Shown: positions 2,705 through 63,060, numbered from the stretch's first letter. The stretch is 64,000 bases of DNA from an uncultured virus (IMG/VR IMGVR_UViG_3300045125_000114) (IMGVR_UViG_3300045125_000114), one strand, 5' to 3'. Translations and numbers: made by a program. The notes: generated by a model from the letters alone, not told the origin.

Positions 2705-3353
2705 CGCAGTCATCCTTATTGAGAGTTGGTCGGGCGACATAGACCAGACGGGAGAGCGCCCGTCTGGTGCAACAAGTTTTCTAAATTACTGCCGGGTCAA
2801 CAGAATGCCTTGAATCAGGATGGTAAGCGCGCTCCCACCGGTACAGGGGCAATTGCTTCTTGACCGTGGTGAGCGTGACGTATTCGCCATCAGTGCCGAA
2901 CGGCCCGTAAACATCGGCGGGCAGATTGTTCAAGCATTTGGCGATGAACTCGGCTTCTTCGGCAGACTTCGCAGGGTGAAACTTGTGGGTAGTCATTGCA
3001 GTTCCTTATGTGGTTGGGCGACCTTCAAGGTACAACTGTCTAAAACAGGCCGGGTGAGCGCCCCGGCCCGTTCGGGCTTCACATCGCCGCAATAGTGGCG
3101 ATCAGCTTGAGTTTGACGGCATCGTGCCCGGCGGGGTCGTCCCACGAGAAGATACCGTGTTCCATCGCTTTGGCGAGTTTGGGGTCGGTGACTTTGGCGA
3201 CTTCGAGGAGTTTTTCCCACTGCACTTCGAGGTCGGCGGTGTTGATGCCCGAATCGAGGATGCGGTGCGTGGTTTCTCGCATTGTTCTGTCCTTATGTTG
3301 GGTTGGGGCGACACCGGCTAGGGTACAAATGCCTAACCGGGAATAAACAAAAA

Positions 3354-3373: not shown

Positions 3374-4672
3374 TTTCGGTCACAGCAACCCGGCAGACTT
3401 GGCTACCGAGAGGTTTGCGGCGACCGTCTGGAAGCGGTTCGGATTCCGCTTGAACTCGGTGAGGGCTTGGGCTTCATCCCAGTCGCTCGGCAAGGGTGCC
3501 GGTGGCGACGATGAGGTTGGTGCCGTCGATGGTCACGATGAACTTCGTGATCCATTTGTTGCTCTTTTCGTCACGGAAGGTGTTGGTGCCGACCTTGAGG
3601 CGGCGCGATCTTGACGGTCTTGGTCACGTTCACATCCTCTTGAGTTGGGGTTGCACAAAGCGGGGTACAAAAGTTTAACGCTTGCAGTTGGCGAAGTCTT
3701 CGGCCATTGCGGTCGAAGCGTGGTAATCGTTCATGCGGCGGAACAGTTCGGCGGTGTAGCGAAGCATCGCCTCTTTGACCGCTTGGAACAGGTGGACGTT
3801 TTTGTAAACTTCGTCGCCTTCGTGGTTATGCACCGTGTAGTACGGTCGTCCGGCGGCGTCGAAGAACTTGCCGATGGAAAGCCCGCCGTTTTCGATGAGG
3901 ATATAGCTCTCGTCGTGGTGCGGCGTCATCAGCGTGATGCTAGGCCCATCGGTGAGCGTGCCGTTACATGATTGGACGCCGTGAAAGACCTTGAAGTAGC
4001 TCGCAACGTATTCCACATCTTTGTGATTGAACATTGCACATTCCTTAGTTTGAGGTTCGCAAAATGGCAGGTGCCGGAACGGGCACACAACACCAGACGT
4101 AGGAAATCTAAATGTTGTGCGTCCTACCCCGTTCCGGTCCTTGCCGCTGACGGTGGGGACAGCCTGCTGCTGCCCCACTTACCCTGTTTGCAGGACCGTT
4201 TACGCTTAGTATTCTCCGACCGCACGAGCTATACGCTGGCTGCGATTGCCTTGCCGACGGTCACACTTGTGCTTGTGTTTACCAGCCCCGCCCCGGTGAG
4301 GGGTATGCCCACGAGCTATTGCCGCAGGGTCAATGGCGGGCACCGTGAACTTGATCGTCTTGTCTTTGATCGGGGTCGTGTTTTTCATCGCAGTTCCTTA
4401 TTGGTGTTTCGCACATAGACCAGACGGGGGAGTGCCCGTCTGGTGCAACAACTACTTTGCTTTTTCCAATTCGGCCCGAAGGCGTTGAACTTCGTCGGCC
4501 AGTTCGTCTGACCGTTGTACTTCGCACAAGAGAAGATACATCAAGTCACACTCTTGACATGAAAACCCGGTTTCGATTGGGGTATCGACAGTTACAACGC
4601 CGTTTTCGAGTGTGGCGGTGTAGCCGGGGTATTTGCTGAGTGTTTCAACTTTGTTTGCCACGCTGTCACTCC

Positions 4673-5065: not shown

Positions 5066-6352
5066 TTGGTTCTCCTTATTTCGAGTCTCGCAACATAGAC
5101 CAGACGGGAGAGCCCCGTCTGGTGCAACATTTTCTTTTATTCTTCGGGCGGAAGACCTTCCCATTCCGGCTTGACTTCGAGTTTGGTAACGTGGAATTGG
5201 CTGTTAGGGCCAATCAACCCGTCTTCATGTTCAACGAACAAGTCGGGGCGTTCTTCTTGCCACTGTTCAATGGTTTTGCCTTCGTTGTCTTCTCGTGGCT
5301 CGAAGGCGTGGAAATCATCGGGGACGTGATGGCATTCATCACAAAAGTGGCCGGGCATGATGCCGTCTTCTTCCCCGAAATGGTCGCAATGCTTGCAGAG
5401 TTGGTACAGAGTTTCGTCTGGCATGGCTTTCCTTATTGTTGGTGTTTCGCACATAGACCAGACGGGCACTTGCCCGTCTGGTGCAACATTTTCTTTTACT
5501 TTGCGACGAATGCCCACTTCGGAACGTAGTCGGGCGGCACGAACTCGAAGATGTTGGGTGCCGTTTCGGTCGTGGCTTCTTTACAGGTGCCGGTGAGGGC
5601 ACGTTTTGCGGCAAGGCGGCGAACGGAAACGTAGTAGAAATCGCACCGTGCGTCTCGGATGGCGTCCCACGTTCGGTACGCCGTATCTGTCTCACGAATG
5701 GCTTGCCAAATCAGGTCGGCCCGGTCGTTCTCCCACGGCAATCGTTCTTCTAGGTGTTTTCTGAACTCTCTGTTGAACTTGCACAACTCGTTACAGATTC
5801 GTCTGTCGGGAAGGCGATTTCAATTTGCCGAATGGTCGGAGCGTCTTGCAGGTCGGCATAGCGCTTGCGAACGAGGTCAAGGTCGGCTTGGAAATCGTCG
5901 TGGGCGGTGAAAACGTACCGGCTTTCTCGTGCGTCCATCAGTTCCAGTTCGACGGCTTTCGTCTGTAGGGCTTGCCGTACTTCCGGCCAGCGTTCGAGCG
6001 GCACGTTTTCGGGCGTGCCCACCGGGGCGGCTCAACATCACGAGGGCGAGCAGAAGGTCGCTTGGCGTCGGCATTTTCGTTACTCCTGTTGGGGCGACAC
6101 CTTCATGGGTACAAAAGCCTAACTTTCGAGTCGAATGTTGGAGATGTGGACAGATGCGGTGGTGAAGCAAAGTTTGTTCGCCACGTCCTGACGTGCCCGG
6201 ATTGCGAGTTGCTCAACAATTTCGTCACGGTCGGCGTCGTCGGCTACGTTGTGTCGCACGGTGTATTCGCCCTTGTAGACTTCGCCCGGCCACCCGCCCG
6301 CCTTGTAATCGACCGTTGCAGAAACGAGCATTTGCACACCCTCCCTAATTAA

Positions 6353-6426
6353 GTCTCGCAGAGCGGTTTCGATCCGCCTTTTCCGGGTTGAAAGCCCAGC
6401 GTCTTAGCCACTAGACGACTGCGAGA
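6353..6426 (-). tRNA. tRNA-Glu(TTC)
   Basis: TCTCGCA/TGCGAGA acceptor stem, D arm GTCT-AGTGGCTA-AGAC, anticodon arm CTGGG-CTTTCAA-CCCGG, T arm with atypical ATCGAAA loop; CCA not encoded. Confidence 0.8.
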
Positions 6427-6462
6427 AAACCGGTTTTTCTAGAGGAACCGGCAAACCTCCGA

Positions 6463-6549
6463 GTGGGTTCTAAGGGAATCGCACCCATCGACTTCTTCCC
6501 GACGTTTATTGTCGCCTGTGTTACAGACAGGTGTCGGGGTTAAAACCCA
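6463..6549 (-). tRNA. Atypical tRNA-Tyr(GTA)-like RNA lacking a normal D arm
   Basis: TGGGTTT/AGAACCCA acceptor, CCTGT-CTGTAAC-ACAGG anticodon arm, GGG-TGCGATT-CCC T-like arm; CCCGAC/GTCGGG stem replaces the D arm. Confidence 0.5.
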
Positions 6550-6661
6550 TTAGCAAACGGCCGGGGGCTATCACCCTTGTGGCCTGTGGAAACCGGCGGC
6601 AACTTGACCGTTTGCTGTACTAAGACCAGACGGGAGAGTGCCCGTCTGGTGCAACAACTTT

Positions 6662-7090
6662 TTAGCCAACGTACCCGGCAAGCTCAGGGGCAGCGGGCGC
6701 TACTGCCGGGGTCACGAGATTGGCGAAGACGCCCGCCAACACTTGCTTGACCTGTTCGGCAAGGATCAGTTGCACGGCCGGGGTGCGAAGGGCATTCGCC
6801 ACCATGCCGTTCACTTGCTCTTGCGTGACCTGTTCGCCCACGACGCTGCGAATCGCCTCATCAAGCCCGTTGATGTTGTCCGCTTCGATGGTGGCGTTCT
6901 CGATGGCGTTCTCGACAAACCGTTCGAGGCCGGTCACGTCGTCGGCATCGACTTCGGGCGGGTGGTCTTGCAGGTAGCTCTCGATAGCGTCATCGAGATT
7001 GTTGATGTCGTCGGCTTCGATGCGCTCGTTGCGAAGCGACTCTTCGACCATTTCCTGAATCGCTTCGGCCAGCTTGTCAGTCGCACTCAT
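6662..7090 (-). CDS. Acidic hypothetical protein with three internal (I/V)xAD(D/N)(I/V)xxL repeats
   Basis: IEADDINNLDDAI / VDADDVTGLERFV / IEADNINGLDEAI; flanked by motif A on both sides. Confidence 0.75.
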   Translation of the reverse strand: MSATDKLAEAIQEMVEESLRNERIEADDINNLDDAIESYLQDHPPEVDADDVTGLERFVENAIENATIEADNINGLDEAIRSVVGEQVTQEQVNGMVANALRTPAVQLILAEQVKQVLAGVFANLVTPAVAPAAPELAGYVG

Positions 7091-7162
7091 CTTGACCCCT
7101 TATGGTTAGTGGTGTCCGCATAGACCAGACGGGAGAGTGCCCGTCTGGTGCAACATTTATTT

Positions 7163-7456
7163 TTAGAGTTTGACGCCTTCGAGCAGTGGGGCGACCTGTT
7201 CGGCGTACAGTCGCTCGAACTCTTCGCTGGAAACTCGGCCCTTCTTGTTGCCGCCGTCAATCCAGTTGATGTGTTTGCCGGTAGTCGGCCCCCAATCGTT
7301 CTCCCTCACCACACGGTCGAAGCCGTCCAAGTGGAAGGCGACCGGGGTTTTGTAGCTGAACCACACGGTCAGCGGCCCGATGTCAACCCGTAGGGTGTGG
7401 GCACCGTAGTTGTCGCTGCTGTACTGCCCGTAGTTGCTGATGGAGGGAAGTTCCAC
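7163..7456 (-). CDS. Hypothetical phage protein
   Basis: 97 aa with FSYKTPVAF...WGPTTGKHIN; flanked by motif A. Confidence 0.75.
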   Translation of the reverse strand: MELPSISNYGQYSSDNYGAHTLRVDIGPLTVWFSYKTPVAFHLDGFDRVVRENDWGPTTGKHINWIDGGNKKGRVSSEEFERLYAEQVAPLLEGVKL

Positions 7457-8018
7457 TTTCGTACATCCTTATGTTGGTGTTCTCGCACATAGACCAGACG
7501 GGAGAGTGCCCGTCTGGTGCAGCATTTAGTTGCGAATTACGCCGCAACCTTTTCGACGGCCTTGAGGGTGACGGTTGCAGTTTCCGGCACGTTGAACAGG
7601 GCGCTGGGCTTGCCCCTTCCCTGTCGGATTGGGTCGGCTCCCGGCTTCCGTCACGATGCCCTTCGCCAGAAGGAACTTGAGCGTTCCAGCGGCCACGGCG
7701 TAATCGACTTCGTGCAGGGCGGCGAACTCATTGGTTGTCAGAATCACGTTTCTCTCCGGGTTTGGGTAACATGGCGGTGAGTGTGTCGCAGTCTTCGTGC
7801 ATCAGCTTTCGCACACGGGCGATTTCTTGTTTCGTCAGGCCGAGAGCGCCCCCGGCTTCGTTCTCGCTGCCCCAGACGCCTTCAAGCACGGACAGGGCGA
7901 TAAGAACAAGTCTTTCTTCTTCTGGCTCTTTCATCGTGTCCATTTATTTCCCCGTATTGATTGTGTCCGCAAAGACCAGACGGGACAGTTCCCGTCTGGT
8001 GCAACATTTAGTTGCGAA

Positions 8019-8273
8019 TTACGCTGCGAGCTTCGGGCGACCACGGAACAGCTTGATCTTGGCTTCCTTCGCCAGCTTGCCGAGCGTCGGCATGGAGATG
8101 GAAACCAGTTCCTTCGGCTTGCCCGGCGTCACCTGCACACCGGTAGTGGCGAGAAACTCCCGGCCCTTCGTAAGACCCATCTCCCGAATCACTCGGACGA
8201 TGGCCTTCTTCTTCGTGCCGACGAACTCGGCGGGACGACCGGGGCCACGCTTGACGGTGTTGGACTTCGACAT
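8019..8273 (-). CDS. Small basic putative DNA-binding protein (AT-hook-like GRP motifs)
   Basis: KRGPGRP and FRGRPK motifs, Lys-rich, ends KLAA. Confidence 0.55.
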   Translation of the reverse strand: MSKSNTVKRGPGRPAEFVGTKKKAIVRVIREMGLTKGREFLATTGVQVTPGKPKELVSISMPTLGKLAKEAKIKLFRGRPKLAA

Positions 8274-8303
8274 TTTCCTTACTCCTGTTGGGTTTGGTTG
8301 AGA

Positions 8304-8448
8304 CATAGACCAGACGGACATCCTTCGGGCGGGTGCAAGTTCTTTTCGTTTTTCTTTCGTCAGTCACTCGCACCGGACATAGACCAGACGGACATCCTTC
8401 GGGCGGGTGCAAGTTCTTTTTGTTTTTCTTTTCGTCACTCGCACCGGG
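8304..8448. repeat. Tandem duplication of an approximately 74 bp unit containing a variant motif A
   Basis: CATAGACCAGACGGACATCCTTCGGGCGGGTGCAAGTTCTTTT...TCACTCGCACCGG occurs at 8304 and again at 8378. Confidence 0.9.
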
Positions 8449-9515
8449 ACACCCCATTGGGTACAATTGTCTGATGTCGAAGACAGACATTTGTACCACG
8501 AGCTACTTTTGACGAAAAAACCCGGCGTGAGCCGGGTTATCCCATTGCCAGAACGATGCCGGTGATGTGTTCTGCGAGCAGTTCCAAATCCCTTTGCGTC
8601 TTGTCGTACTGTTTCCACATCTTGCCGTCGGGCTTGCAGCGTCGTAGCGCTGATTGCACCGACCGGCTTGGAACATCACGTCACGAATGCGGTTGATGTA
8701 CCACTGTTTGCGGAACCACGAGTCGAGTCCGGCGGGCGGCTCGAACCGATCTTTGCCGATGTACTTCTCAATCAGTGCGTCCATCTCGGCGTTGTGGCTC
8801 TGCCAGAACGCAACCGCATCAATTGGTTGGTCGTCGCTCATTTCACACTCCAAAGAAGAAGGCCGGGCACCTTGCGATACCCGGCCCACTCATCCTTCTA
8901 GCACCACACACGGTACAAAAGTCTAACTTTCTTCCTCATCCTTGAGGTCTTCTTCCGTCATCACGTCCACGATGGTGCTTTTCTCAATGTAGCCGCCCTT
9001 GATGTCGCTCACGAGTTCGCCCCTCAAAACCACTTCGTCGGGATCGGTCTTTTCGTCGTGATCGACTACAACCTTCACAAGTGCGTACTTAACGGTTTGC
9101 ATTCTCGTCATGATGTCGTGCCCCTTTCAGTTCTGGGGCCACATCACGATGCCGCCTTGAAGTTCGGATTCGGGCGACCGGGGGCCAGCACAGCGGGCTT
9201 CGTGCCCTGTTCCGGCGGCGGTTGATACAGCGCTTCGCCGATTTGCTTCCGTAGCTCGAAGAGGTGGCGAGCAACTTGGCGACCTTCGTTGGATACCGCT
9301 TGCTCGTTGGCTTCGAGGATGCCCAGCAGTTCTTCGGCCATCTCCTCATTCAGCATGAGCGGAATCACACGCTTGAACCGGCTGACGCTGAAGGCGGGCT
9401 TTGCACCACCGAAGACACCCCGGCGGTCAGTGTTGGGAACGTTCAAGGCTTTCTCCTTACTTGGAAACAGGGTTATCGCATAGACCAGACGGGGGCGAAC
9501 CGTCTGGGTTCAACA

Positions 9516-10136
9516 TCACTCGCCGGTAATTTGCTTGAAGAGTTCCGGGCGGTTCTTCTTCAGCCAGCACAGAGCATCGTCGGAGTCAACGTGGCACTCG
9601 AAGCCAATCGTTTCCCGCCGGGCACCGTTGTTGTACGTCTCCAGATACTCGAACACATCGGCAACGTAGTCGTCACGGCTTTCCATGAACTGAGCTACTG
9701 CGTCGGCCGGATAGTCGCCGCCCCAATCACAACCAGCAAGCGACTTGATCTCGTCGTCGCTTGCTTGCTCGAACCACTTGACTGCATCGAAGTGGGTTTC
9801 GGCAGCATGATCGTCCGTGTGAACTTCTGCATCAATCACGAAGTCGTCGTCTTCCTCGTCGTCGTCTTCCTCGTCGTCGTCATCTTCCTGATTCGGAGAT
9901 GGGGGCAGCGGTTCTAGGGAAGCCGTCGGTGCAGCGCTCAACTTTGTCCCGAACTCGTTAATCATGTCGATGGCGTTGTTCAGCGACACGACGGCAGAAT
10001 CACAAGCGTCGTCGTCAACGACATCATCGCTCTTGATGTATTCGACCGAAGACCGAGAAGCGTCGAGTTCGTTGCGAACCCGTTGCACCATCTGCTCGAA
10101 CTCGTTCTTGAGGGCAATCAGTTCTTCAAACTTCAT
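9516..10136 (-). CDS. Highly acidic hypothetical protein
   Basis: 206 aa with a DDDDEEDDDEEDDD tract; motif A on both sides. Confidence 0.75.
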   Translation of the reverse strand: MKFEELIALKNEFEQMVQRVRNELDASRSSVEYIKSDDVVDDDACDSAVVSLNNAIDMINEFGTKLSAAPTASLEPLPPSPNQEDDDDEEDDDEEDDDFVIDAEVHTDDHAAETHFDAVKWFEQASDDEIKSLAGCDWGGDYPADAVAQFMESRDDYVADVFEYLETYNNGARRETIGFECHVDSDDALCWLKKNRPELFKQITGE

Positions 10137-11116
10137 CGTTGCTCCTTATCGTGAGGTGTCCGCAAAGACCAGACGGGGAAGTTCCCGTCTGGTGCAACAA
10201 CTACTTTTCGTATTTTGCCTTGAGGCTGGCGAGCAGCGCCTCGTTCGCCCGCTTCACGTTCGGCGGCTTGTTCGGCTTCCCACTTGGGTAGCCACTCCTT
10301 CTGAATGGATAGCCGCTCTTGGTATTCTGCCGTACACCGCTCGTAATACGTCAAACCCGATTCGTAGTTGGGGTTGGGCACTTCTTCCCACTTAACGCAA
10401 ACAATCTCGTCCCCGTAAGCCAAGATGGTTTCACAGTCTTCGGGAATGTCGGCCCGATTGATGGAGTCTTGGCGAAGAAGTTCGACTTGTCGTTTTACCG
10501 TCTTGACCGGCGGTGTCGGAACGTACAAAGGGTAGGGAGAAAACCCCTTCGGGTAATTTGCAAGATTCGGCATCGCTTTCTCCGTATCAGGTTAGTTGGA
10601 ACAGTGAGTGCTTTTTCTCGAACTCGTCAAACGCTTCTTCGTCTAGCGATTCGAGGGCGCTTGTCGAGTGCCTGAATGTCGCCCAGAGAAATCGTGCCGT
10701 CGTCAACGAGCATGGCGAGCATGTGAACCGGATCGCCCCAAGCCTTCTTGACTACTCGGCCCACGGTCAGCGGTGCCGGTTCGATGTTGTTCAGGATTTC
10801 GTTACCCTGACAGTAAATCTTGTCCCAATCCCTTTCCCGCTGGTAGCCGCCGATGTAGGCGTAGCTACCGTCACTGAACTTGATTTCGTGTCGCAGTCCA
10901 GCGGTGCGTTGTTCAACGTAGACGACAAGCCCCTTCTGCCACACCTTGCGACTCGCCACGTCTTTGCGTCGGCCGTCCGGGGCCGGGTTCGTCACATCGG
11001 CAGTCAGCTTGTACCAACCGGTGGGCGGAATCACAGGGCTGAGAAGATTCGACATTTTGTACTCCGTATGGTGTTCGCAAAGACCAGACGGGGAAGTTCC
11101 CGTCTGGTGCAACAAC

Positions 11117-11576
11117 TCAGGCCGCTTTCAGTTCGCCGCTCATGTACTTTTGGGCGGTTTCCTTGTCGGTCGCCGGGGAAACCGACCGGAGCGTGCCGTC
11201 GGTGTTCACCTGCATTACCGTCCACTTGCGGGGCGAGAGTTGGGCGAGAAACTTCTTGCCGGTGTCGGCCGTGTCGCCAACGTACACTTGCTTGGGCGCT
11301 CGCCGCCGACATCGCCCGGTGGGTCACGGCGTAAATGGCGTCCCACAGTGCCACACCCTTGAGGCAATCGGGCCGGGTCTTGCCGGTCAGCCGATGGGCG
11401 TAGTGGTCATCGAAGATGCACCGTTGGGCCAAATCCAAGTCCAGCTTGCCGTAGAACTGCAAGCCCGCCTTGACCTGCGCCACGGCGAACTCCTTGCCGT
11501 CGTTGTCAACCCAAGCGGGCCAACCGTCAAACGTGCCAGCGTTTTCGAGAAGCGTCAGATAACCGGGGACGTGCAT
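11117..11576 (-). CDS. Hypothetical protein (apparent frameshift)
   Basis: MHVPGYLTLL...; the shifted frame ends KYMSGELKAA-stop directly before motif A. Confidence 0.6.
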
Positions 11577-11642
11577 GTTTGCTCCTTATTGTTTGGTGTC
11601 CGCATAGACCAGACGGGAGAAGTCCCGTCTGGTACAACATCT

Positions 11643-11951
11643 TTATGCCGCTTTTTTGAAGTGCTTGAATTGCGGCACATTCGTCAGAGCGTCTTTCGCC
11701 CACTCGTAATCCTCGTCCCGCCAGTGAATGTTTTCACTGAGCCGAACTTCGGACGTGAACGGATAGATGTAAACGGCAATGTCCTTGCCACGATCCAGAC
11801 CGATACCCTTCTCGTCGGCGAAGCCACAGTGAGTTTCTTCGTCAATGTTCCAGCAGTACAACATGCCGTTCGACACGATGCCCCGGAGTTCCCGCCCCAA
11901 CGCCTGCATTTCGGTGCGAGACGGGTCAATCAGGTAATTTTCAACGGCCAT
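11643..11951 (-). CDS. Hypothetical protein
   Basis: Clean 102 aa ORF between two motif A copies; ends FKKAA. Confidence 0.75.
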   Translation of the reverse strand: MAVENYLIDPSRTEMQALGRELRGIVSNGMLYCWNIDEETHCGFADEKGIGLDRGKDIAVYIYPFTSEVRLSENIHWRDEDYEWAKDALTNVPQFKHFKKAA

Positions 11952-12809
11952 CTCTGCTCCTTATGTTTGGTGTCCGCATAGACCAGACGGGGAAGTCCCG
12001 TCCGGTACAACAATTACTTGTCGTTTTTCTCGTTCTCTTTCGGTGCCGGTTTGGTGGCCGAGCCGAGAACCGAGATGCCACAAGCGACGTAGACCTGTTT
12101 GGCATCTACGGGCTTGTCACGCCCCATTTCGGCGTGCTTGGCGTTGATTTGCTTGATGGTTTCCAGACTCCACATGGCCTACCTCCGAGAGAACTTAGGC
12201 TTCAGTTCGGGTTTCTTTTCGGGCTTACGGTTGAAGCTGCCCGTAAACTCGCTCGAAAATCGGTTCGTGTGCTGCGTACACTGGCGTTTTCACCAGAGAC
12301 GCCATGAACGCCGCCATCAGGGAAGCGTTGAAAAGGCCGGTCGCAATGTAGCTGCTGGTGAAGATGAGCAAGCCGCTGACGACCGCCCAACTGATCGACT
12401 TGATGATGGTCTTCTTCAACCTTATGTTCCTTCCTAGTTGTGAAATAAAGTGGCCGGGGCCGGGCGGAAATTAAGCGCTCGTCACGACACCGCCCGCCCC
12501 GGCATTTAACTCAGACGATCACTTGAATGGACTCGTTGATCGTCACGACGGCGAGAACGCCGTGGTAATCTCCCATTTCCTCGAACCAGTAGCGTGCCTC
12601 TTCCAGCACTTCATCGAAGTTCGTGCCCTCAACCGCATCGCCTTCCTCAGTCTGAATCACTTCGTACTCGTCAAGGTCGGAAGTGTAGTAGGCACGGGCC
12701 TGATACCGCACGGGCACTTGGATTGGTTCCGGCATGGCTTTCTTTCCTTATGTTTGAGTTTCGCACACATAGACCAGACGGGGAAGTTCCCGTCTGGTGC
12801 AACAAGTTT

Positions 12810-13112
12810 TCAGATTTCCTTGAAGCTCTTGGCGTCAACCTGAGTGTTGCAACCCGTCTTGACGCTGTACGCCACTCGGAACTCTTTTTCCGGCCACTGA
12901 TCGTAGGGCAGATTTTCCTTCGGCATGACCTTGTGGAACTCGGTTTGCGGCTTCACCAACACGACTTCGCCCTTGTCGAAGGCCACTCCCATCTTGGTTT
13001 TGACCTTCTTCGTGACGACCATCAGCACCCAATTGTCCCAATAGTTCTTGTACTGCGGGTACTGCGTGTGCTTGGCGTCGGCAATCGCAATCAGTTCGGT
13101 TCGCTTGTCCAT
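12810..13112 (-). CDS. Hypothetical protein
   Basis: Clean 100 aa ORF between two motif A copies. Confidence 0.75.
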   Translation of the reverse strand: MDKRTELIAIADAKHTQYPQYKNYWDNWVLMVVTKKVKTKMGVAFDKGEVVLVKPQTEFHKVMPKENLPYDQWPEKEFRVAYSVKTGCNTQVDAKSFKEI

Positions 13113-13859
13113 CTCTGCTCCTTATGTTGGGGACATAGACCAGACGGGGAGCGCCCGTCTGGTGCAACAAGTTTTCAGAATTGCTGGCCTTCTTCGGCGG
13201 CGCTCACACACACTTGGTTGATGAGATTGCGAAGGTCTTTTTCGAGTTTGACCATCGACTCGTGAACCGGATTGCCCATGTAGAACTGGCCTACGCTGCG
13301 GGCACGGTTAATCGCTTCCAGTGCGGTGAACGCCCCGGACAGAGCAACCCCGTAATTCGGGGCCGTGGCGTTCAGCGGCAGCGTGGTGCCGTCCTCGAAC
13401 GTCAGCACGCCCTTTTCGATGCTGACGTGGCCTTCGGTTTGCGCCAGCTTGTCAATTACTTTGGTCACGAAAGCACCTCGAACATGGGTTGATTGGGGCG
13501 AAACTGTTTGCGTGTCCAATTGGCGACCGGCGAAGTGGTTCGCTTCCGCTGGTCGAAGATTTGCGCCGAAACAACTTGGTCTTGGCCGAGATGAGCGTTG
13601 CAGCCGCCCGGCTTCATCGAATCCTCAAGAACCGCAACCCACTTGTCGATGTTTTCGGGAGTGGGCTTGCCCATGTCCTTCACACGCCACTCCTGCGGCG
13701 TGTAGTGATAACCGCTGACGCACTTGAACTCGATTCGGTACGTCCACGTTCGTGACCGGCCCATGATCGTTCTCCTTATGGTGTCCGCATAGACCAGACG
13801 GGGAAGTGCCCGTCCGGTGCAACAACTTACTCTTTTTTCGTAGTCACGAAACGATTTCA

Positions 13860-14020
13860 GAAAAGCAGGAACTCCCCCATTGCAGTTATCGGGGGGAGTC
13901 CCGGTGAGTTACGGTCCATACTCTGCCAATTACCGTTAGTCGTTCCCGGCTACGCCCGTGCGCTCCGGTACTTGACCTCACCTGCCCCACTCAACAGAGG
14001 TTTACGCCTCTATAGTTTAG
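13860..14020 (-). ncRNA. Candidate structured ncRNA occupying a motif-A-bounded slot
   Basis: No convincing ORF; GGTGAG/CTCACC, GCAGG/CCTGC and GGACTCCCC/GGGGAGTTCC pairings, then a T-run. Confidence 0.45.
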
Positions 14021-14687
14021 TGGCACAAAGACCAGACGGGGAAGTGCCCGTCTGGTACAACAATTTACCAAAATAAAGCAACTGCCCCGGCGATGATTCC
14101 GACAGTCGAAACGATGCCACAGTAGAACGGGCGCTTGTACCGGGAATCCATCGAACGATGCTGAAACCCGATTTTCTCTAGGCACCAGTCCAACGGAAGC
14201 CCGATCAGCATGAACAGCAGAATGAAAGTATCCAGCATGACTGACGGTTCCTTATCGTTAGAGGTTCGCAGAGGGACGCCGGGCGGCGCAATGTTTGTCT
14301 GCGGTGGTTAGCCGCCTGTTTGTGTAAGCCGCCCGGCGTCGTGTATTACGCCTTGACCTTGAACTTGCCCCGGTTCGCTTCGATGAACTCCCGAACCCGC
14401 TGCACGCCCTCTTCGCTGAACAGTTCTTCCGCTTGCGGCAGACTCATGTTGACCGGGAAGCGGAAGCCGTCGAAATTGATCTTGAGCCAACCCTTGTCGC
14501 CGATGTCCAGCTTGAACGGCTTTTTCGCCAGAGCCGCCAGCTTGTCGGTCATTTCGTCCAGCGTGATGCGCCCGGCCTTGAAGTCTGCGGCGATTTCTTC
14601 CTTCGTCATCTTCGTTCCCCTTAGTGGTTAGTGGTTCAGACATAGACTAGACGGGAGTAGTGCCGTCCGGTACAACAACTTTTTCAG

Positions 14688-14751
14688 TGGAGCCGCCCGG
14701 AGTCGAACCGGGTTAGCAATTTCGGCTGTGTCGCCACTACACTGCGGCCCC
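14688..14751 (-). ncRNA. Miniature tRNA-Ala-like RNA with truncated anticodon arm
   Basis: GGGGCCG/CGGCTCC-A acceptor (G3:U70, A73), D arm GTGT...ACAC, T arm CCCGG-TTCGACT-CCGGG, only a 3-bp AGC/GCT stem in the anticodon position. Confidence 0.65.
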
Positions 14752-17129
14752 GATTACATCAGTTCGCAACCCGTCCGGCGTTGGGGCGAATCCTCACGTC
14801 TTCGGCGAACATCGGCTTGGCGACCTGAACCGGAATGATTCGGAACTTCCAAGTGTTGCCGGTCTTGCTCTTGACCGTCAGAACGTCACCGACTTGGCCC
14901 TGCGACTTGACCGGAATGGTCACGTCGTCGCCGTTCTCACAGAGGAACGAGTACCCGCCGGGGCGCTCGATCAACTTCCCGGTGTAGTCCATCATGCCGG
15001 AAAACTCGCCGGTGCCCTCACCGCTCAAACCGATCAGCTTGGCCTTCTGCATCGTCGCTCCTTAGTTGGGTTGTGCCGCACAGGGTACAAAAGTTAAAGA
15101 TAAGGGGGCGGGCCAATTGTTGCCGCCCCCTTGTGTTCTTTTCAGCCGTCAGAGAAAGCCTGATGGGAATTGTCGCACCGTTTTCACCCTCACCACGGAT
15201 TTCCATTACGTCGGGGTTAGTGGGGCCACTTCGCAAGGTCGGCCTCGATAACCGTGCCGGGCTTTCCCCGGCACGATTCAAGTCCAGTGCATGGCTTTAC
15301 TATCTCGCTTATCGGCGGGCAGTTCTGAGAATCCCCCGCCCGGTTTGCCCCTTCTTACATTCCGAATTGCAGGCGGAACAGTTCGTCAATGTCGTCCGTG
15401 TCCATGTGCCCGCCCAACTCTGCCGAAATGTCGGCCTTCACACGCTCAAGCACGGACTCCTTGAGCGTATCCATGTGCTGCGCCACCAGAACCGGCAGCG
15501 ACGGGTTCACGGCGATTGTCGCCCACATCTCTTCGCCCACCGACTCACGGAACAGCTTCAACTGCGATGCCGGGTCTTTGGGCAGACCTTCCTTCACACG
15601 CTTCAGAATCGGCTCAAGAGTTTCCAACTGGTACTTCTCGGCATCGACACCGAGCGCCTTCGCCCGTTCCTCCGTCGCCGTTTCCATCTTGTTGAGAAGG
15701 TTGAGAATCTTGATTTGACTCAGTGGGTCCATTTTTACTCCGGTTTGGGTGCTTCGCACATAGACCAGACGGGAGAGGTGCCGATCTGGTGCAAGTTCTT
15801 TACTGATTTTCCAGCCACTCAACAAGCTCGCCGTCTTCCGTCACGCCGGGCACCTTCCAACCACACACCTTGCACTGGAATCGTTCGGTAGTGGCGTCCG
15901 TGATTTCCGGTCGCCGTAAATCACTTCGCCGTCTTCAACAGATACGTTGGTGACAACGTATGCGTCCGATTGGCAGCATTCGAGTTGAGTTCCGCCACAC
16001 GACGGACACTTGAAAACAGGATTTTCCATATGTTTGTTTCCGGTTCGGGGTTGTCGCACATAGACCAGACGGGAGAGGTGCCGTCTGGTGCAAGTTCTTT
16101 TAGCTTTTTTCCGCCTCGGCCGCACCCATCTTCTTGAACGAAGTGGCCGAAGAACCGAACGCCAGCGCCGTGAAGTCCACGTCTTCGCTCTTGAGTAGAT
16201 GAATGCTGCGAAGAAGGTTGGCGTCGGCCAGTTCCCGCATGATGCGAGACAGTTCCCAATACAACAGCACCCGACCGTCTGCCAACACAATCCCCTTGTC
16301 GCCCACTTCGTCAATGATCGGTTCGGACACGTTCATTCCCCCGTAAAATATTGGTCAACGAAACTTTCGGCGAGCCACCGGACAGAAGGAAAATCCTTAC
16401 GCTACGCCAATCCGCTTCTCGTTGTCAGTAGATTTCCGTCACCCGCTGGAACTGACTCGCACTGCGCGTATCTCGGCCGGGTCTTCACAACCCGCTCGCC
16501 TTCGCAACAGTTCTCGCAACTGGTTCTGCGAACCGTGCCGAGAATACCATACAGGTTATCCCAACGGGCAGTCCTTGCGAGCGTCGAACTCGGTCAGAGG
16601 AATGTCAGAAGGAACTACCGACTCGATACGTCGAGCGGCACCAACAAAAATTGCTTCGGTAATCAGAACCAACTGGTTCCGGTTAAAAATCGCAGACATT
16701 AGGACACATTACCCTTGACGGTTTTGACCGTCCTTGTACTCTTTCAGAAGCCTTTCGTACTTCTCTTTGGCCTTGCGGATTCGTTCGTCCACTTTAGCCA
16801 TTGCGGACGGCGTGTTGCACCGCTCCCCGTAACCACGATCAGCAAGCTCTCGCCAACGACGATAAGCCTCTTCCCACGGTTGCATAAGCACTCCTTATGT
16901 TGGTTCCAGCACAAAGACCAGACGGGCACACACCCGTCTGGTGCAACAACTATCCTTCAATTTCGGGAGCTGCCAATGTCTACGTTGGTCACGTCCACCA
17001 GTTCGTCCTTGACCTCGTGCGCCGTCGCCCCGTCCTCTTCAATCCTCGAAACGGCGTCTGCGGCGCTGTCGGCCTCTACAACACATTCGACACGGTAGAT
17101 GCGAGTTTCGTTCACGACGACACGGTATT

Positions 17130-17651
17130 TCATACCAACTCCCCATTCTCGTAAAACTCGTACTCGTTTCCGTCCATCCACTCGGCGAAGTTTGCATCCT
17201 CGAACGAGCCTTCGTACTCGTTCTCCGTGTCCTTCAACAGTTCCCGGAACGCCGCTTCCATCAGCTTGTTCACGTCCCGCTCGCCGCCCCGGAACGCCTT
17301 GCGGAAGCCGTCAATGCAACTCTCGTCCCAACACCAACCCGTCAGCTTGCAGTCGCCGATGCCCCGCCCGGTGCGGCGGTTGTACCGGCCCAGAGATTGA
17401 AGCCGCCGCTTGATTTCACGGCCACTCAGTTCCGGCATGTCGAACGTCATGCGGGAATAGCTGCCGCCCGTCCAGTCGATGCTCCAATCGTCAATCTTCC
17501 CGTCGAAGTGTTCCGCCAGTGCCGTGATGCTTTTCATCGCTTCGTGGTCGGAGCGAAACCCGTCTTCTCGGAAATGATCTTTCGCCCGTTCCTTCGCCCG
17601 TTGCGTCGGCAGTTCGGAGAACTTGTAGATGGTGATGGTTTCAGTTCGCAT
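17130..17651 (-). CDS. Hypothetical phage protein (MRTxxxxIYKFSEL...NEYEFxENG type)
   Basis: Terminal motifs recalled from uncharacterised phage proteins; RBS and motif A upstream. Confidence 0.65.
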   Translation of the reverse strand: MRTETITIYKFSELPTQRAKERAKDHFREDGFRSDHEAMKSITALAEHFDGKIDDWSIDWTGGSYSRMTFDMPELSGREIKRRLQSLGRYNRRTGRGIGDCKLTGWCWDESCIDGFRKAFRGGERDVNKLMEAAFRELLKDTENEYEGSFEDANFAEWMDGNEYEFYENGELV

Positions 17652-18834
17652 GACCGACCTCCGTATTTGTTTCGTTCGCACATAGACTAGACGGGAGTAA
17701 CCCCGCCTAGTGCAACATCACGCCGCTTCAATTTCGGAATTGAACACGAGCGTGGCCGTGCCAGTGCGCTCGAATCGAACGGTCGGGTTGCCGTTTTCGA
17801 CGTACACCACTTCGCCCACGTCGCCCTTTTCGGCGTGAATGTACGCCCCCGCCGGGAACTTAGCCGCCGGGTCGCCCTCAGTGCCGCTCTCGGTAATCTG
17901 CTTCGTTGCCTTGACCTTTGTTCCGACTTCCATCACTGCCCCCTTAGACAGAAAGGATTTCGATTTTGTCCACGTCCGGCGTCAGGAATTGCACCAGCAA
18001 CTCAGCCGCCTTTTCTTTCGTCACCACCGTGCCGAGATTGTCGTGATCGTGGTAACGCTTCTCGTCAACGTAGTACCCGGTCGCCGGTTTGTACTGAACC
18101 GGATACTTACCCGCCTGACCTTCGTACTTCACCAAGCATGGCGATACATACTGTACTCCCATTTGCGTGATCGTTTGTAGAAGAACGTCGGAGCCCTGAG
18201 CTCCCCAACTGTCGGTCATTTCGTTCCAAATGATGAGCATGGCATTACCGACACTTGCGGCAGCGTACTGACCGTCACCGCAAGTGCCCGGATGAACCAC
18301 CGCGGGCACAGTTCACCACGTTGCCCATCTCGTGGCCGTGCCGCTTCTCCACTTCCGACTTCCAACGCTTGATCGTTGAACACAATCGACAGTTTTCGGT
18401 CGCGCATGACGTTCCTTATGGTTTGAGTTACGCAGAAAAGCCGGGCGAGAATCAGGACGGATTGAGTACCGTTCTGGCTGTCCCCGCCCGGCCGTGTCTA
18501 CGCCACCTTCTTCGTCACACCGAGAAGAGTGACCTCGGCACCGTTGGCGTTGGCATTCAGGGTGAACTTCCGGCGACTCCGGTTCTTCACGGTGATCGAA
18601 CCGACCACCTTCGCCCGCCGACAGGTCGGTTTCCGCCACCGAAACCGTCACCGCCGTGATCGTCCCTTGCTTTTTGGAGTTGGCGATTTCCGCCAGCGTC
18701 CCGAAAGCCATCTCAACCGCCGCCCCGACCGTTTGCAGTGCCGTCATTTTCGTTCCCCTTGTGTTAGTGTTACCGACATAGACCAGACGGGCGAGCTACC
18801 AACTGGTGCAACTTCTTTTTCTTTTTCACCGCCA

Positions 18835-19350
18835 TTACGACTCGTGAACCGGACGGAGCGACTGACACTTCACACAAATGTCGCCCTCACCGCCCGGCCC
18901 CGGAATGCACTCACGTTCGTCCACCAACTCGTGACACTTGATACAGTTCACCGAATGCCGATCAACCCAATCGAGAGTGTGAATCGGTACGTCAAAGACT
19001 TCCGGCAAGAAATCTTCTTCTCGGTACGGATGGGGAACGTCAATCTCTTTGCTCTCGACAATGCGAGCGCCCACAAGGTTGAAAGCCCGATTGACCCACA
19101 GCATCAGATGTTCGGCCGTCAACCCCATGTACGGCAATACCCAAACGGTCGCTTCCCACTTGCCCGGTTCGTACTCGTGCGGGCCAACCGATTCGCCGCC
19201 ACACTGGTCATACGCCCAATCGAGCAACGGGTGTTCGTCCGACCACATGCCATCTTCCGACAACAGGCCGCTCACCCAATCGCAAGCGCCACCGTTGGCG
19301 GAATCGCCGGTGTCAAACTTAATTTCCAATTTGTAAGCCGTAGCTTGCAT
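18835..19350 (-). CDS. Acidic hypothetical protein with C-terminal CxxC...CxxC zinc ribbon
   Basis: CIKC...CVKC; flanked by motif A. Confidence 0.65.
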   Translation of the reverse strand: MQATAYKLEIKFDTGDSANGGACDWVSGLLSEDGMWSDEHPLLDWAYDQCGGESVGPHEYEPGKWEATVWVLPYMGLTAEHLMLWVNRAFNLVGARIVESKEIDVPHPYREEDFLPEVFDVPIHTLDWVDRHSVNCIKCHELVDERECIPGPGGEGDICVKCQSLRPVHES

Positions 19351-21359
19351 CTCGCTCCCCTATGTTGGTTAAACGCACAAAGACCAGACGGGCCGAAACC
19401 CGTCTGGTACAACAAATTACCTGACCTTTTTCAACGCTGCGTCGATCACACTCAACACCGGGCGATCATCGACCACGGCCTGCAGCTCGGTTCGCCATGT
19501 ACGCCGGGCCTTCAAGCACGTCCTCACGCAACACTTCCAGAGCGTGCTTGATTACGGCAATTTCGTCGTGGAGTAAATTGCAAGATTCACACCGTTAGGA
19601 AGTAGGAGAAAGAAATCTCGATCTTCGGCATGTAGCCGCCCGTATCGGTCTTCGTGTAGATGTTCACACGCCAATCCTTCTCGCCAACCGGGGTTGCCGT
19701 CACTTTCAGAAAGCCCGCCGGAACGCCGCCCGCCTTCTCAAAGGCCAGCTTCACGGCCTTCTCCCGGTTCGACTTCTCCACGTTCTCCGGCTTCGCTGCG
19801 ATTTGCTTTTCCAACTCGTGCCTCTTGCTCACGCCGCTCCTGAATCTCGGCCTCATCGCCCCAATTTACGAGCATTTTTGTTCCCCTTCGGAATAAGACA
19901 CACATCCAAAGACCAGACGGGGATATTCCCTCTGGGTGCAAGATGTATTTAGGCGTCAAACGCCTTGCCCGGCTTCGTGTAGATTTCCACACGGTTCCCG
20001 CCCACCGGATTCCAAACGTGTTCGTCCGGCGTGCGCCCCGTCGAAGGCGTCGGATTCTTCGCCTTATTACGGTAGTGTGTCCACCACACAAGTTTGTCGC
20101 CTTCGCTCGCCAGAGTTTTGCTCCAATCGGTCATGCTCAGGCCGCTCTCGCCCAAGCCAATGTAATTCCAATTGCTGCCCTTCTCTGCGATTACTTCGTG
20201 CCGCTTCTTGTCGTAAAATGACCACACTTCGTCAATGGTGTTCAGCGTGACAACCAACTTGTTGTCGTGGTAAATGTCATAAGCGATGTTCTCGACTCCG
20301 TACCCATTCGCCATCAATTCGACGCTCGCTTGCCATATCGTTTCTCCGTTGAGTGTGCCGTGTAAGGTACAAATGTCTAACCGCCGTACAGAAAAAAGAG
20401 GGCCGAAGCCCTCTTTCGTTACTCCCGGTCCAACCGCTGTAGGCCCAATTCGTCGCCCGTCAGTTCCTTGCGGGGGATTTCCGACAACACCCGCCCGTAG
20501 AGGTTCAGGACGTTTTCAACCTTGCGGTCGGCGTACACACACGACATATCGAGGTCTTCGTCAATTTCACTGACAATCGCCTCAGTCAGTGCCGCCCGAT
20601 CTTCGCCGTCGTCCGGTTCGGTCAGTTCGTAATCGAAGGGGAAGAAATAGGCGCTCCAACCTTCTGCCTTTAGCTGCGGGTCTTCGGTGTTCTTCACCTC
20701 ATCGACCCAAGCCGCTTCTGCGTCGTCCTTGTCCCAATAGAAATTGAAACCGGCCCCGCCGTCGTACTGCCACGCCACAACCCAAACGGTGATCTTCGCC
20801 ATGTCGCCCCCTATGGTTGAAGTGTCCGCACAGACCAGACGGGGAAGGCCCGTCCGGTGCAACATCTTTACTGTTCCAAGTCGCCCGCATACAGCACCGC
20901 CTCAAACCCGTCAGGAAGCTGCACAGTTACCGTGTCTTCCCGCTCGTCAACGGCGATAACCTTCAGCGAGTGCCCACGGGGAAACATCGTCTCGATTTCT
21001 TCGCCCGTGTCCGGGTTGCTCGCCTCAACAAAGAACATTTGATTCTTCGTTTGAACCCTGTCGCCCACCTTCGGCAGTCCGCTCACACGCTCAAAACGCC
21101 GATGAGCCTTCTGCATCAAACTTACCGCCGTCGCACGGTCGGATACAGCCGATAGCTTTTCTTTCAGACCGGCGAAGTATTCCGTGTCCGGCAATTGCTT
21201 GGCGTATAAAGCCGCCACATCCAGAACATCCGCCGTCAGTTCCCGCTTGTCGAAGTATTTCGCTTCGCCAACCATTGTTGCACTTTCTTCGACCGTCATG
21301 TTTTTTCTCCGTATGAGTGTCCGCACAGACCAGACGGGAAAGGCCCGTCCGGTGCAACA

Positions 21360-21869
21360 TCACGAACGAACTTTGTACGTCACGCCGTCGAAATCAACGT
21401 CGGTGTAGTCGCTTTCGAGGTTTTCCGCTGTGGCGTCCCAATCAATCACGATGTAGGAAGGCATGTTCCGGGGCAAGTCGCCCAAATCGTCAACCAACTG
21501 CTTGACGTACTCGGACCAATAGCTCTCCCGAACCATCGTCGCACCGTCCGACCAATCCGACGTGGCGCTCTCGCCCTCTTCGTTCACAGCTTCCAACACC
21601 TTCAACTCGTCGCCGTTGTCAGTGTCCCAATCGTCCAACTCATCAACGAGCGATTCACGTTCGTCAACCAGATTGTTCATCTGGTCTTCCTCTTCGTCGT
21701 TCCGCTCGTCGTTATCCTGCAAATCCTTGAGCAGTTCGCCCTTCTCGTCGTCCCAAGCGTTAATGGCGTCCTTCAACGCCTCACGTTCGCCCTTCAACTC
21801 TTCCAGACGGGAAACAATGTCCCGGCTGTCAATCACATCGTCGGTGTTGTCGATGGTATGGCGGGCCAT
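21360..21869 (-). CDS. ArdA-like acidic antirestriction (DNA mimic) protein
   Basis: Very D/E-rich; C-terminal MPSYIVIDWDATAENLESDY resembles the ArdA C-terminal YIDxExxARDL motif. Confidence 0.5.
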   Translation of the reverse strand: MARHTIDNTDDVIDSRDIVSRLEELKGEREALKDAINAWDDEKGELLKDLQDNDERNDEEEDQMNNLVDERESLVDELDDWDTDNGDELKVLEAVNEEGESATSDWSDGATMVRESYWSEYVKQLVDDLGDLPRNMPSYIVIDWDATAENLESDYTDVDFDGVTYKVRS

Positions 21870-21942
21870 GTCATTTTCCCCTTGTTCGGTGTCCGCATAG
21901 ACCAGACGGGAGAAGCCCCGTCTGGTACAACATCTTTAGAAA

Positions 21943-22750
21943 TTAAGCGGCCATCGCCAGAGCGTACCGCTTGCTTGCCTCAATTACACGCCCGACGCCT
22001 TCCGTTTTGCCGCCGCTACCGTGTGCGGCAATCACAACCGAATACCGAACGTCGCTGGCGTCACGTCGGCCGTTGCAAGCCGCCGCACGTCTCACACGTC
22101 TTCGTAAAACCCGCTTCCTCACTCGCCGGACAAACAATTTCCGCCTTGCTCTTGTCGGCAAGATTCGTCACCGTGCGGAACGTGCGCCAAGCCCATCGCC
22201 TTAGCACGCTCACACTCTTCTACCGAGTGCGTACTCGCCATGATGCGGGTAGACCAATCGGAGAAACGAACGTCGGCCCATTGGTGAGTGTAACCCGGTT
22301 GCGCCTTCCCGGTGCAAAGTGCCGACAACTTATCCCACGCCTTCATCGGGATTGCTACCGGGTCGCCGTAACTACCGTAACGCAAACCCCGGCCCACAAA
22401 CTTCTTAGCGTGCGACTTCGCCAACTTCGGGTATCTACCCTTTTTGAACGAACGGTAAACCGCCAGCGGTGCCTGTTGCACAAGGACGTAGCAACTCCGG
22501 CCCTTGTTCCGAAGCCCGTCGGCCGTCTGAACTACCGTCCCACGAAGCGGACAGTTACCACAAATTGCCGAATCCGCCCCGGTGTTCAACGCTTGCGTCG
22601 GTTCAACGTCGGTGCGAATGATCCACGTCTGAACCAGATTGCCCGTCTTCCCGTTCTTCAGTGCCGAACGTCGCAACGCCCACAATGGGCGAACCGTCAA
22701 TCATCGACGGCCCCTGATAGAACACCACACCACGAAGTTTGCTTCGCCAT
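21943..22750 (-). CDS. Cys-rich putative Fe-S (radical-SAM-like/gp88-like) phage protein, frameshifted
   Basis: KTGNLVQTWI, ICGNCP...CYV, LRYGSYGDP, YTHQW; a C-terminal Cys cluster lies in another frame; ends AMAA. Confidence 0.55.
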
Positions 22751-23834
22751 ATTTCCACTCCTTATGTGTTTCCGACAATGACCAGACGGGAGTGGCCCCG
22801 TCTGGTACAACATCTTTTTTAGACGGCCTTTTTTGCCGCTTTCGCGCCCGTTCGTACTCCCGACGCTGGCGCTCCCAATCGTACAAATCGTCCTCATCGA
22901 CCGGGTGCCCGATGGCAATTTCCAAACCCCGCTTCTGACGGTTCAGACGGGCCGATTCCGAACGAATGTGCGCCGCCGACGCCTCACCGTCACAAGACAA
23001 GTTCTCTGGCGACAGACCGACAGTAAGCACTCAGCAGCAAGCATCGTACAGTGCGTTGTTGTCGTCAAACGGGTTGTACGTCAACTTCTCACGGGGCACG
23101 GGCGGGGCAGTAACCGGCACCGAACCGAATAGCGGTGCCTTCGGAATTGCCGTCGGGTCGGCCGGTTCCATCAGCGAAAATGGCACCGTCCACATGGTTC
23201 CAATCGGATAGTCCCGAATCGAACCACGATCTTCCAACTGCTTGACCTTCGCCTTCTTCGGGTTGACCTTCACAACCTCACCCAACGTCTTCTCGCCGTG
23301 CTTGCGGCCGAAATAGACCTTCATGCCCTTGACAACGTGTTCCCGTAACATTCCGTATACCTCTGTGGTTAGTGGAGACGCATAGACCAGACGGGAGAAG
23401 ACCCGCCCGGTACATCATTTTGCAATTTCCGCATTACACCAATCCTTCGCCGCCTCAGCGGTCGGAAAAGAATGAAGGTGCTTCTGCCCCCGGTACACCG
23501 TCCAACGATTTTTGACGTAGAAATCATGTGAAGTGAAATCGCCCGGCCTGTTCTCCACAATACGGAAAGGCGACTTGTACCAAACTTCGGTTTTAATCCA
23601 CTCGGCTTCTTGTTTCGTCTTCGCCATTGTTGTCCCTTATTGTTGGGGGTTCGCATAGACCAGACGGGAGAAAGCCCGCCCGGTACAACATCACTTGCAA
23701 TTTTTCCGCCACACACCGGTGACAGGGTACAAATGCCTAACCCAACTCGTCAGACATTTGTACTTTATGTAATTTGGTGAAATTATTGAAAAAATATCCC
23801 TTGTTACTACAATAGACAAAAGAGGGATATATTT

Positions 23835-25355: not shown

Positions 25356-25424
25356 CAGTTTCTCCCTAATGGGCAAAGACCAGACGGGGCAAACCCCGGC
25401 CGGTGCAACTTCTTCAGCAAAAAA

Positions 25425-63023: not shown

Positions 63024-63060
63024 TGTAGACCAGACGGGTCGGGCAAACGCCGGTGCAACA
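63024..63060 (-). repeat. Outlying motif A copy (degenerate distal arm)
   Basis: TAGACCAGACGGG...CCGGTGCAACA about 30 nt upstream of the helicase start. Confidence 0.8.

Follow-up and report, generated by a model that had tools for sequence, protein, structure and literature searches.

Promoter-early stem-loops (PeSLs) have been described in the T4-type phages RB49/phi1, T4/PST, and KVP40/nt-1 as composite promoter/stem-loop cassettes placed before ORFans in hyperplastic regions, with the stem-loop often lying between or over the promoter boxes; according to the passages that deal with them, genes are inserted, deleted, and replaced when PeSLs recombine with one another (Arbiol et al. 2010, PMC2839356; Comeau et al. 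2014, PMC4122927). A comparable arrangement is found in a 64-kb stretch of DNA from an uncultured virus (IMGVR_UViG_3300045125_000114), the whole of which is called the window here. The window carries 37 copies of one element of about 45 nucleotides (nt), all in a single orientation, in an array of small genes on the minus strand. Because the layout of this element matches that of the T4-type PeSLs, we read it as a PeSL analogue, that is to say, as a regulatory cassette of an uncultured large phage that heads a gene with a promoter and a hairpin, in an array that turns over by local events. We regard this reading as probable, though well short of certain. The array would then be a known kind of system in another form, with a different promoter type and in another phage lineage.

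Copies were defined by the core AGACCAGACGG with at most 1 mismatch; the core motif lies on the plus strand, the genes of the array block lie on the minus strand, and each copy is named by its first position. A preliminary description, whose range was 5094–23690, had counted 37 copies, and the same number was recovered, 31 of them inside the range at exactly the starts given there. Five further copies are at 415–4449 and 25374, that is to say, 36 copies are within 415–25409, and one outlier is at 63024. With up to 2 mismatches and on both strands, the core had 76 matches compared with 18.4 ± 4.5 in shuffled sequences. The intervals between copies range from 74 to 1720 nt and are occupied by protein genes.

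Read on the minus strand, each element follows an upstream stop codon in an A-rich stretch and consists of a first block TTG(C/T)AC, a spacer of 15 nt, and a second block CCGTCTGGTCT(A/T)TG, after which about 12 nt lead to a Shine-Dalgarno (SD) sequence AAGGAG and an ATG. The first block is exact as TTG(C/T/A)AC in 35 of the 37 copies, and CCGTCTGGTCT is exact in 32/37, with one change in the other 5/37. The spacing between the blocks is 15 nt in 31 copies, 14 nt in 5, and 16 nt in 1. An SD-preceded start codon is located 19–34 nt downstream in 31/37 copies, and two further copies have such a start by eye (16059, and 22776, whose open reading frame (ORF) is cut short). In 30/37 copies, the spacer pairs with the second block to form a GC-rich hairpin of 10–11 bp with folding energies of −10.9 to −22.1 kcal/mol; stems of 10 bp are present, for example, in the copies at 2738..2773 and 4414..4449. 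The 7 copies with a hairpin weaker than −10 kcal/mol retained both blocks and the spacing: the stem is lost in 415..450, 1407..1442, and the outlier (63024..63059), each with the blocks present, and is weak in 18777..18812, again with the blocks present, and in 8304..8339. Pairing on the minus strand is kept in 90.3% of 370 pair cells, and all one-sided stem changes (16/16) are G.U or U.G. The 5′ arm is displaced by one base in the copies at 9479..9514 and 19907..19942, with the hairpin retained; the copy at 17681..17716 has one compensated pair (U-A), and those at 13788..13823 and 14641..14676 match the core. In an Rfam scan of the 64 kb, a tRNA-Glu gene was the sole match at the gathering score and the element matched no family, and a literature search for the core 11-mers returned only unrelated primer or short hairpin RNA sequences among the matches listed.

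PeSLs, as the passages cited above describe them, share the following with this element: (i) a stop codon within A/T-rich sequence, a pair of promoter-type boxes with a GGG...CCC stem-loop between or over them, an SD sequence, and a start codon; (ii) a position mostly before ORFans in a plastic block; (iii) G-T pairs in the stems; and (iv) indels and replacements between close relatives that end at the cassettes. Here too, an intergenic composite motif before ORFans, a stable GC-rich stem-loop, and indels ending at the cassettes were found, the last in small numbers and in contigs. By contrast, the boxes here are not of the sigma-70 consensus and their sequence is unrelated; a sigma-70 −35/−10 pair occurs at no element, and two other blocks at fixed spacing are present instead. 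The stem and the second box are far more uniform than in PeSLs (11 invariant bases in 32/37 copies), the phage is no recognisable T4-like virus, and promoter and terminator activity, which together with mini-circles belongs to the definition of a PeSL, is in our case predicted from the sequence. The likeness between neighbouring cassettes, to which we now turn, is not mentioned in the PMC2839356 passages on PeSLs.

Adjacent copies have private variants in common, and all the loops, variants, and flanks listed in the preliminary description were present at the places given and private to the copies named. The loop AGAGTG (plus strand) occurs in 6620..6655, 7119..7154, and 7488..7523 only, and the loop GAAGTT in 10163..10198, 11078..11113, and 12768..12803 only, the first two of these being identical throughout. 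The copies at 15759..15795 and 16059..16094 are a single inserted base apart; those at 20829..20863 and 21324..21358 have 98% identity over 46 nt and are the sole copies with CACAG; and CCCGCCCGG is private to 23381..23416 and 23654..23689, which have two G.U pairs in common. Upstream flanks are common to 7488 and 7970 (7970..8005), to 12768 and 13134 (13134..13168), and to 5094 (5094..5128) and 5452 (5452..5487). The TTGTAC variant of the first block, carried among others by 11603..11638, 11977..12011, 21896..21931, and 22776..22811, is clustered, with 5 adjacent pairs in which both copies carry it (p = 0.013), and G.U variants showed no clustering among neighbours (p = 0.31). The window and related strains disagree on one-base length differences in G/A runs of elements 11977 (one G fewer than in all four metagenome runs compared), 20829, and 21324; these differences may be homopolymer errors in the window and are thus unfit as private markers.

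For the 31 copies in the range, the mean edit distance between consecutive whole elements was 5.10, compared with 6.61 ± 0.28 when the order was permuted, and none of 20,000 permutations was as low. The closest copy was the immediate neighbour for 15/31 copies (3.2 expected, p = 0.0002), and 5 of the 8 pairs at a distance of at most 1 were adjacent, as against 30 of all 465 pairs. The effect extends beyond the element: the ungapped extension score of the upstream-side flank was 3.08 for adjacent pairs compared with 1.79 ± 0.32 (p = 0.0006; p = 0.004 without the tandem copy described below), and the test of the flank on the side of the 5′ untranslated region (UTR) gave p = 0.010. Likeness rises with closer spacing (rho = 0.42, p = 0.013, 35 adjacent pairs), and the signal is almost wholly between immediate neighbours (lag 1), where z = −5.6; for lags 2–4, z is −1.2 to −2.0, and beyond them the signal is nil. 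Over all 37 copies, the Mantel rank correlation was r = 0.175 (p = 0.0035).

Three observations argue for common descent of neighbouring copies rather than convergence. The ORFs upstream of 7488 and of 7970 each run through the common 20-nt flank, but in different frames, one ending at the first TAA and the other continuing to the second. A mosaic structure is seen in copy 7488, whose loop is that of 7119 and whose upstream flank is that of 7970. The copies at 8304 and 8378 (8378..8413) are the two units of a 74-nt tandem duplication of the element only, with no gene inside and none behind the second unit; the stretch between them is covered by contigs of two metagenome runs, X2 and X5 (described below). 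In addition, the likeness of 15759 to 16059 extends over about 80 nt: it begins 7 nt before the first block, takes in an unusual ribosome site, CCGGA, and ends at ATGGA, and the ORFs upstream of the two are unlike each other. The preliminary description had added that the enclosed genes look unrelated; as the 147 predicted proteins, all compared with each other by blastp at E <= 0.1, gave no match between neighbouring array genes, that impression holds at this sensitivity, and paralogy of the enclosed genes is ruled out at the blastp level. A comparison of stop-to-stop ORFs was discarded; it gave many spurious matches, which arose from translation of the elements themselves. The loops and flanks that neighbours have in common thus support common descent, and the earlier view that these are not independently evolved sites is borne out by the flank read in two frames, by the tandem duplicate, and by units that are gained or lost between strains with ends at the elements.

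Strains related to this phage are present in metagenomes. According to the Logan index, metagenomes from 12 studies (biofilter, freshwater sediment, wastewater, and lake) contain words of a 10-kb stretch at a fraction of up to 0.46, and in three runs presumed to be RNA the fraction is 0.06–0.17. Contigs of four metagenomes from four studies (runs including X2, X5, and X7) were placed on 5001–25000; of 34 joints 15 were listed, and the 7 whose shorter side reached 200 nt or more in at least one run were used. The joint from 15732 to 16031 (shorter side 255 nt in both X2 and X7) skips 298 nt (15733..16030, minus strand) and takes out exactly one unit, composed of the 5′UTR, element 15759, and ORF 15841–16029, between the near-identical pair. 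The joint from 16950 to 17129 skips 178 nt in X2 (shorter side 255 nt) and X7 (34 nt) and loses a 58-amino-acid gene (16951–17128) that abuts the upstream edge of element 16912 (16912..16947). From 13850 to 14023, 172 nt (13851–14022) of DNA behind element 14026 (14026..14061) are skipped in X2 and X5, which would leave two elements about 66 nt apart if nothing replaces the skipped part. The joint from 19414 to 19599, seen in X2, begins at the upstream edge of element 19378 (19378..19413), and that from 10205 to 10551, a 344-nt replacement, also starts at the upstream edge of an element; the joints from 12176 to 12451 and from 18373 to 18404 touch no element. Of the 14 endpoints of the 7 joints, cassettes contain 5, where 11% would be expected (p = 0.015), and a zone of 13 nt at the upstream edge contains 3, where the expectation is 2% (p = 0.0025).

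Several other features of these contigs were recorded separately. In X2, positions 10206–10550 of ORF 10133–10573, between the identical elements 10163 and 11078, are replaced by 344 letters less than 85% alike, which represent either a hypervariable allele or a replaced gene. An X5 contig joins 6166 to 6460 with one letter between and skips the tRNA-Glu gene (6167–6459 absent), and the tRNA-Glu gene also appears to be a unit of gain and loss. Joints with a short side, from 5078 to 5439 (24 nt), 8005 to 23722 (21 nt), 11057 to 11594 (47 nt), and 11640 to 9856 (32 nt), were not used and may be mapping effects of repeats or low complexity; at element 23381, X2 has a joint that goes back 40 nt (side 43 nt). 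A GTC/GAC-rich repeat at 9834–9892, which encodes an acidic run in ORF 9516–10136, draws in numerous unrelated contigs of the metagenomes and thereby gives a depth spike and spurious joints that go back. A loop change of X2 at 5469/5470 was likewise not used, since it equals the reverse complement of the loop and is 31–32 nt from contig ends, and it is probably a palindrome aligned in reverse. Single-base indels at 5807, 6033, 6576, 7465, 7480, 8649, 11988, and 21301, several of them inside ORFs, are positions at which 2–4 metagenome strains agree against the window, and short broken ORFs occur across 26–64 kb; together these suggest that the window assembly carries homopolymer or indel errors, or private frameshifts.

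Integron cassette arrays resemble this locus in that small, mostly unknown genes of the same orientation are separated by a hairpin-forming repeat and are gained and lost cassette by cassette. In integrons, recombination takes place at the attC site, which follows a promoterless ORF at its 3′ end and has paired R″/L″ and L′/R′ boxes and a GTTRRRY core. The element described here differs in having its own SD sequence and in being placed before a start codon at a constant distance, and its consensus is a single perfect 10-bp stem without a second pair of boxes. Neither the 92 window ORFs scanned nor the 32 compared with PHROGs yielded a domain of an integrase, a transposase, a RAYT, or a Cas-like protein, and the IntI tyrosine recombinase that accompanies integron arrays together with attI was accordingly not in evidence; these gene-content results cover the 64-kb window, and the genome is probably much larger. 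Repetitive extragenic palindromic (REP) sequences and REPINs are similar as short, conserved, GC-rich extragenic palindromes in many copies, sometimes in local clusters. They are associated with a Y1 (RAYT) transposase and occur in both orientations, usually 3′ of genes, whereas the copies here have one orientation only and a fixed distance from start codons. The preliminary description had also likened the array to the duplication of repeats in clustered regularly interspaced short palindromic repeats (CRISPR); as a mechanism this analogy is not supported, given that the array has no polarity, that its spacings hold protein genes, and that the ORFs scanned have no cas-like or integrase-like gene. 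In a CRISPR array, the short repeats alternate with non-coding spacers of uniform length and are accompanied by cas genes and a leader. The comparison with integrons was likewise drawn for PeSLs by Arbiol et al. 2010, in a passage of PMC2839356. Finally, promoters of extracytoplasmic function (ECF; group 4) sigma factors are described, in the part of PMC5758882 concerned, as two short blocks with a 14–17-bp spacer and a CGT-containing −10 block. The layout GCAC-N16-CGTCT here is of this kind; by contrast, the −35 block here is CAC or TAC and not AAC (AAC in 1/37), and no sigma gene was found among the ORFs scanned. We regard the likeness to ECF promoters as a resemblance only.

We infer activity as a promoter and as a terminator, and likewise the order of events, along the following lines. 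The two invariant blocks would form a promoter recognised by a polymerase, or by a sigma factor, that is not of the sigma-70 consensus type, the transcript would start near CT(A/T)TG, and the spacer would owe its sequence to pairing with the second block. Transcripts reading through from upstream would be ended, insulated, or 3′-stabilised by the 10–11-bp GC-rich hairpin. Because about 45–80 nt of near-identical DNA stand before almost every small ORFan, the array would turn over by local events, namely (i) tandem duplication of a cassette, (ii) events in which the DNA separating two cassettes is gained, lost, or replaced, and (iii) crossovers inside cassettes, which would give mosaics. Neighbours would have private loop, box, and flank variants in common because sister copies from local events stay side by side. 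The preliminary description had proposed either insertion with duplication of the adjacent element or recombination and conversion between neighbours. Local duplication or recombination is supported; the data suit insertion with duplication as well as deletion and as short-tract conversion between nearest neighbours, and the first of these is not separable from conversion.

A number of results weigh against this reading. On the side of function, covariation is thin (3 double-change cells), the stem being retained mostly through sequence identity, and the overall difference in folding energy between the strands is nil (Wilcoxon p = 0.75), so that a double-stranded palindromic operator stays a candidate. 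A sigma-70 consensus scan of 19 kb found 3 promoter-like sites compared with 6.5 in shuffles, and 0 at elements; no U-run follows the hairpin, and terminator-like sites numbered 29 compared with 25 ± 5.9 in shuffles; and the scan of 92 window ORFs revealed no gene for a sigma factor or an RNA polymerase. Promoters of the Bacteroidota, sigma-54, and T7 types were set aside after comparison by eye with consensus sequences, for lack of fit or of a test. On the side of turnover, the preliminary description had held that likeness follows proximity and had named as its refutation a lack of correlation in a Mantel or permutation test: the nearest-neighbour statistics uphold the claim, and the Mantel correlation within 5094–23690 is not significant (r = 0.067, p = 0.14). 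When one partner was removed from six near-identical pairs, the neighbour test gave p = 0.038, which indicates that the effect is carried by about seven discrete neighbour pairs or triplets. The joint statistics rest on 7 joints among the 15 listed of 34, selection alone also favours indels at gene borders, and Logan contigs tend to break at repeats. Moreover, no database genome carrying the element was found.

If the array had an old and stable gene order, short-tract conversion between nearest direct repeats, with no tie to gene gain or loss, might alone have made neighbours alike. The confinement of the effect to lag 1 and its increase for closer pairs (rho = 0.42) are what distance-dependent conversion predicts, and 20829 and 21324 appear alike in X2 where the window copies differ by single bases. 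However, the common stretches extend into non-homologous flanks, as in the 20 nt of upstream ORF ends at 7488/7970 that are read in two frames, and conversion requires homology to start; the element-only tandem duplicates and the presence or absence of whole cassettes between strains indicate that turnover does occur. We therefore consider homogenisation without turnover possible but unlikely. A similar standing is given to a group of readings in which the element is not a promoter and long polycistronic transcripts run through the array, the element acting on RNA only (as a processing or stability hairpin for a sequence-specific nuclease or a translational regulator) or as the palindromic operator of a dimeric repressor. 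The stem sequence is conserved and does not covary, its invariant 3′ arm with CUAUG would suit a sequence-specific RNA-binding protein, a dimeric DNA binder would fit a palindrome whose central 6 nt vary, and elements have no consensus promoter; yet the seven stem-less copies retain both blocks at the same spacing, copy 6620 precedes the tRNA region without an SD sequence, and the two copies with a displaced 5′ arm retain the hairpin but lose the half-site geometry. Taken jointly, these readings are credible but not likely.

Two further explanations place gene capture at the centre. In one, a site-specific enzyme of the integron, CRISPR, or RAYT kind would insert genes at the element and duplicate it in doing so. 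A same-orientation array of small ORFan cassettes divided by a hairpin-forming repeat, joints exactly at the upstream edge of the element, and near-identical copies that bracket single polymorphic units would all suit such machinery, but the gene-content scans of the 64-kb window described above, a consensus without attC-type paired boxes, and an array without polarity make it quite improbable. In the other, the array would be a phage-borne gene-capture locus, in which a dedicated activity tandem-duplicates a cassette of about 70 nt and then loads foreign or new DNA between the copies; the duplicates at 8304/8378 and, in X2 and X5, those between 13788 and 14026 would be "empty" ones. This is an improbable reading. 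If it were true, each captured ORF would be born with a promoter, an insulator hairpin, and a ribosome site, and the locus would be a promoter-carrying analogue of integrons. Lastly, neighbours might belong to functional sub-classes that need equal promoter strength or timing, in which case selection would give them the same variant without common descent. The clustering of TTGTAC in 5 adjacent pairs would be expected from this, but loop bases and non-functional flanks, one of them in two frames, are also common to neighbours, and the strongest pairs are near-identical over 46–80 nt; we consider sub-classes highly improbable. The reading as PeSL-like promoter and hairpin cassettes with local turnover is the one that we retain.

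Searches for related genomes covered several databases. For 19 kb of the window, megablast found no match among 50,697 phage records, an exact 14-mer scan of IMG/VR gave 120 loci with one match each, which are taken as chance on that account, and a scan of IMG/VR for the clamp-loader protein gave none. A 22-base gapped pattern had 5 single matches in JGI metagenomes, and an 18-base gapped pattern had 48 single matches in GTDB genomes, the retrieved loci having at most 3 core matches each. The clamp-loader protein is encoded at the array edge by an AAA+ clamp-loader-like gene (24471–25355) downstream of the element copy at 25374..25409 and has 45% identity to a region of the 595-kb uncultured phage LR756511.1, the sole sizeable match of the phage; the other window proteins have distant phage matches only. 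LR756511.1 has no such repeats near its clamp-loader gene, and genome-wide it has 4 one-mismatch cores compared with 8 in a reversed control. A Pfam search of 59 array genes found no functionally informative family, with one DUF2061 match and three matches below threshold only. Judged by these protein matches, the source is an uncultured large phage that has no close relatives among those sequenced.

Copy 6620 has no ORF behind it and is located about 195 nt upstream of the tRNA-Glu(UUC) gene of the array (6353..6425, minus strand). Structures resembling the acceptor and T arms of tRNA were observed on the minus strand directly upstream of two elements, at 14685–14751 before 14641 (tmRNA model 20.9 bits, mascRNA model 22.2 bits) and at 25426–25478 before 25374 (17.1 bits); both are below the Rfam gathering scores and have no ARAGORN call, and they may be truncated tRNAs or tRNA-like 3′ ends. 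Just beyond the array, the G+C content changes from 0.55 to 0.49, and the GC skew flips from −0.14 to +0.23 near 26000, which may mark a replication or transcription boundary. Farther along, two neighbouring tail-fibre-like genes on the minus strand (37013–38644 and 39069–39992) have 83% identity over 218 amino acids; the DNA that separates the two has more repeated pieces, which are in other frames, and by all appearances this is a duplicated or recombining receptor-binding locus.

The idea behind PeSLs, that is to say, regulatory cassettes that serve as linkers for modular gene shuffling, would be extended by this array from T4-type phages to an unrelated uncultured large phage. To this idea are added a simple quantitative signature, the likeness of nearest-neighbour cassettes, and gains and losses of cassettes in metagenomes of four studies. 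Should the two invariant blocks prove to be a promoter, they would also provide a search pattern for an early regulon and a handle on the polymerase or sigma factor that the phage uses.

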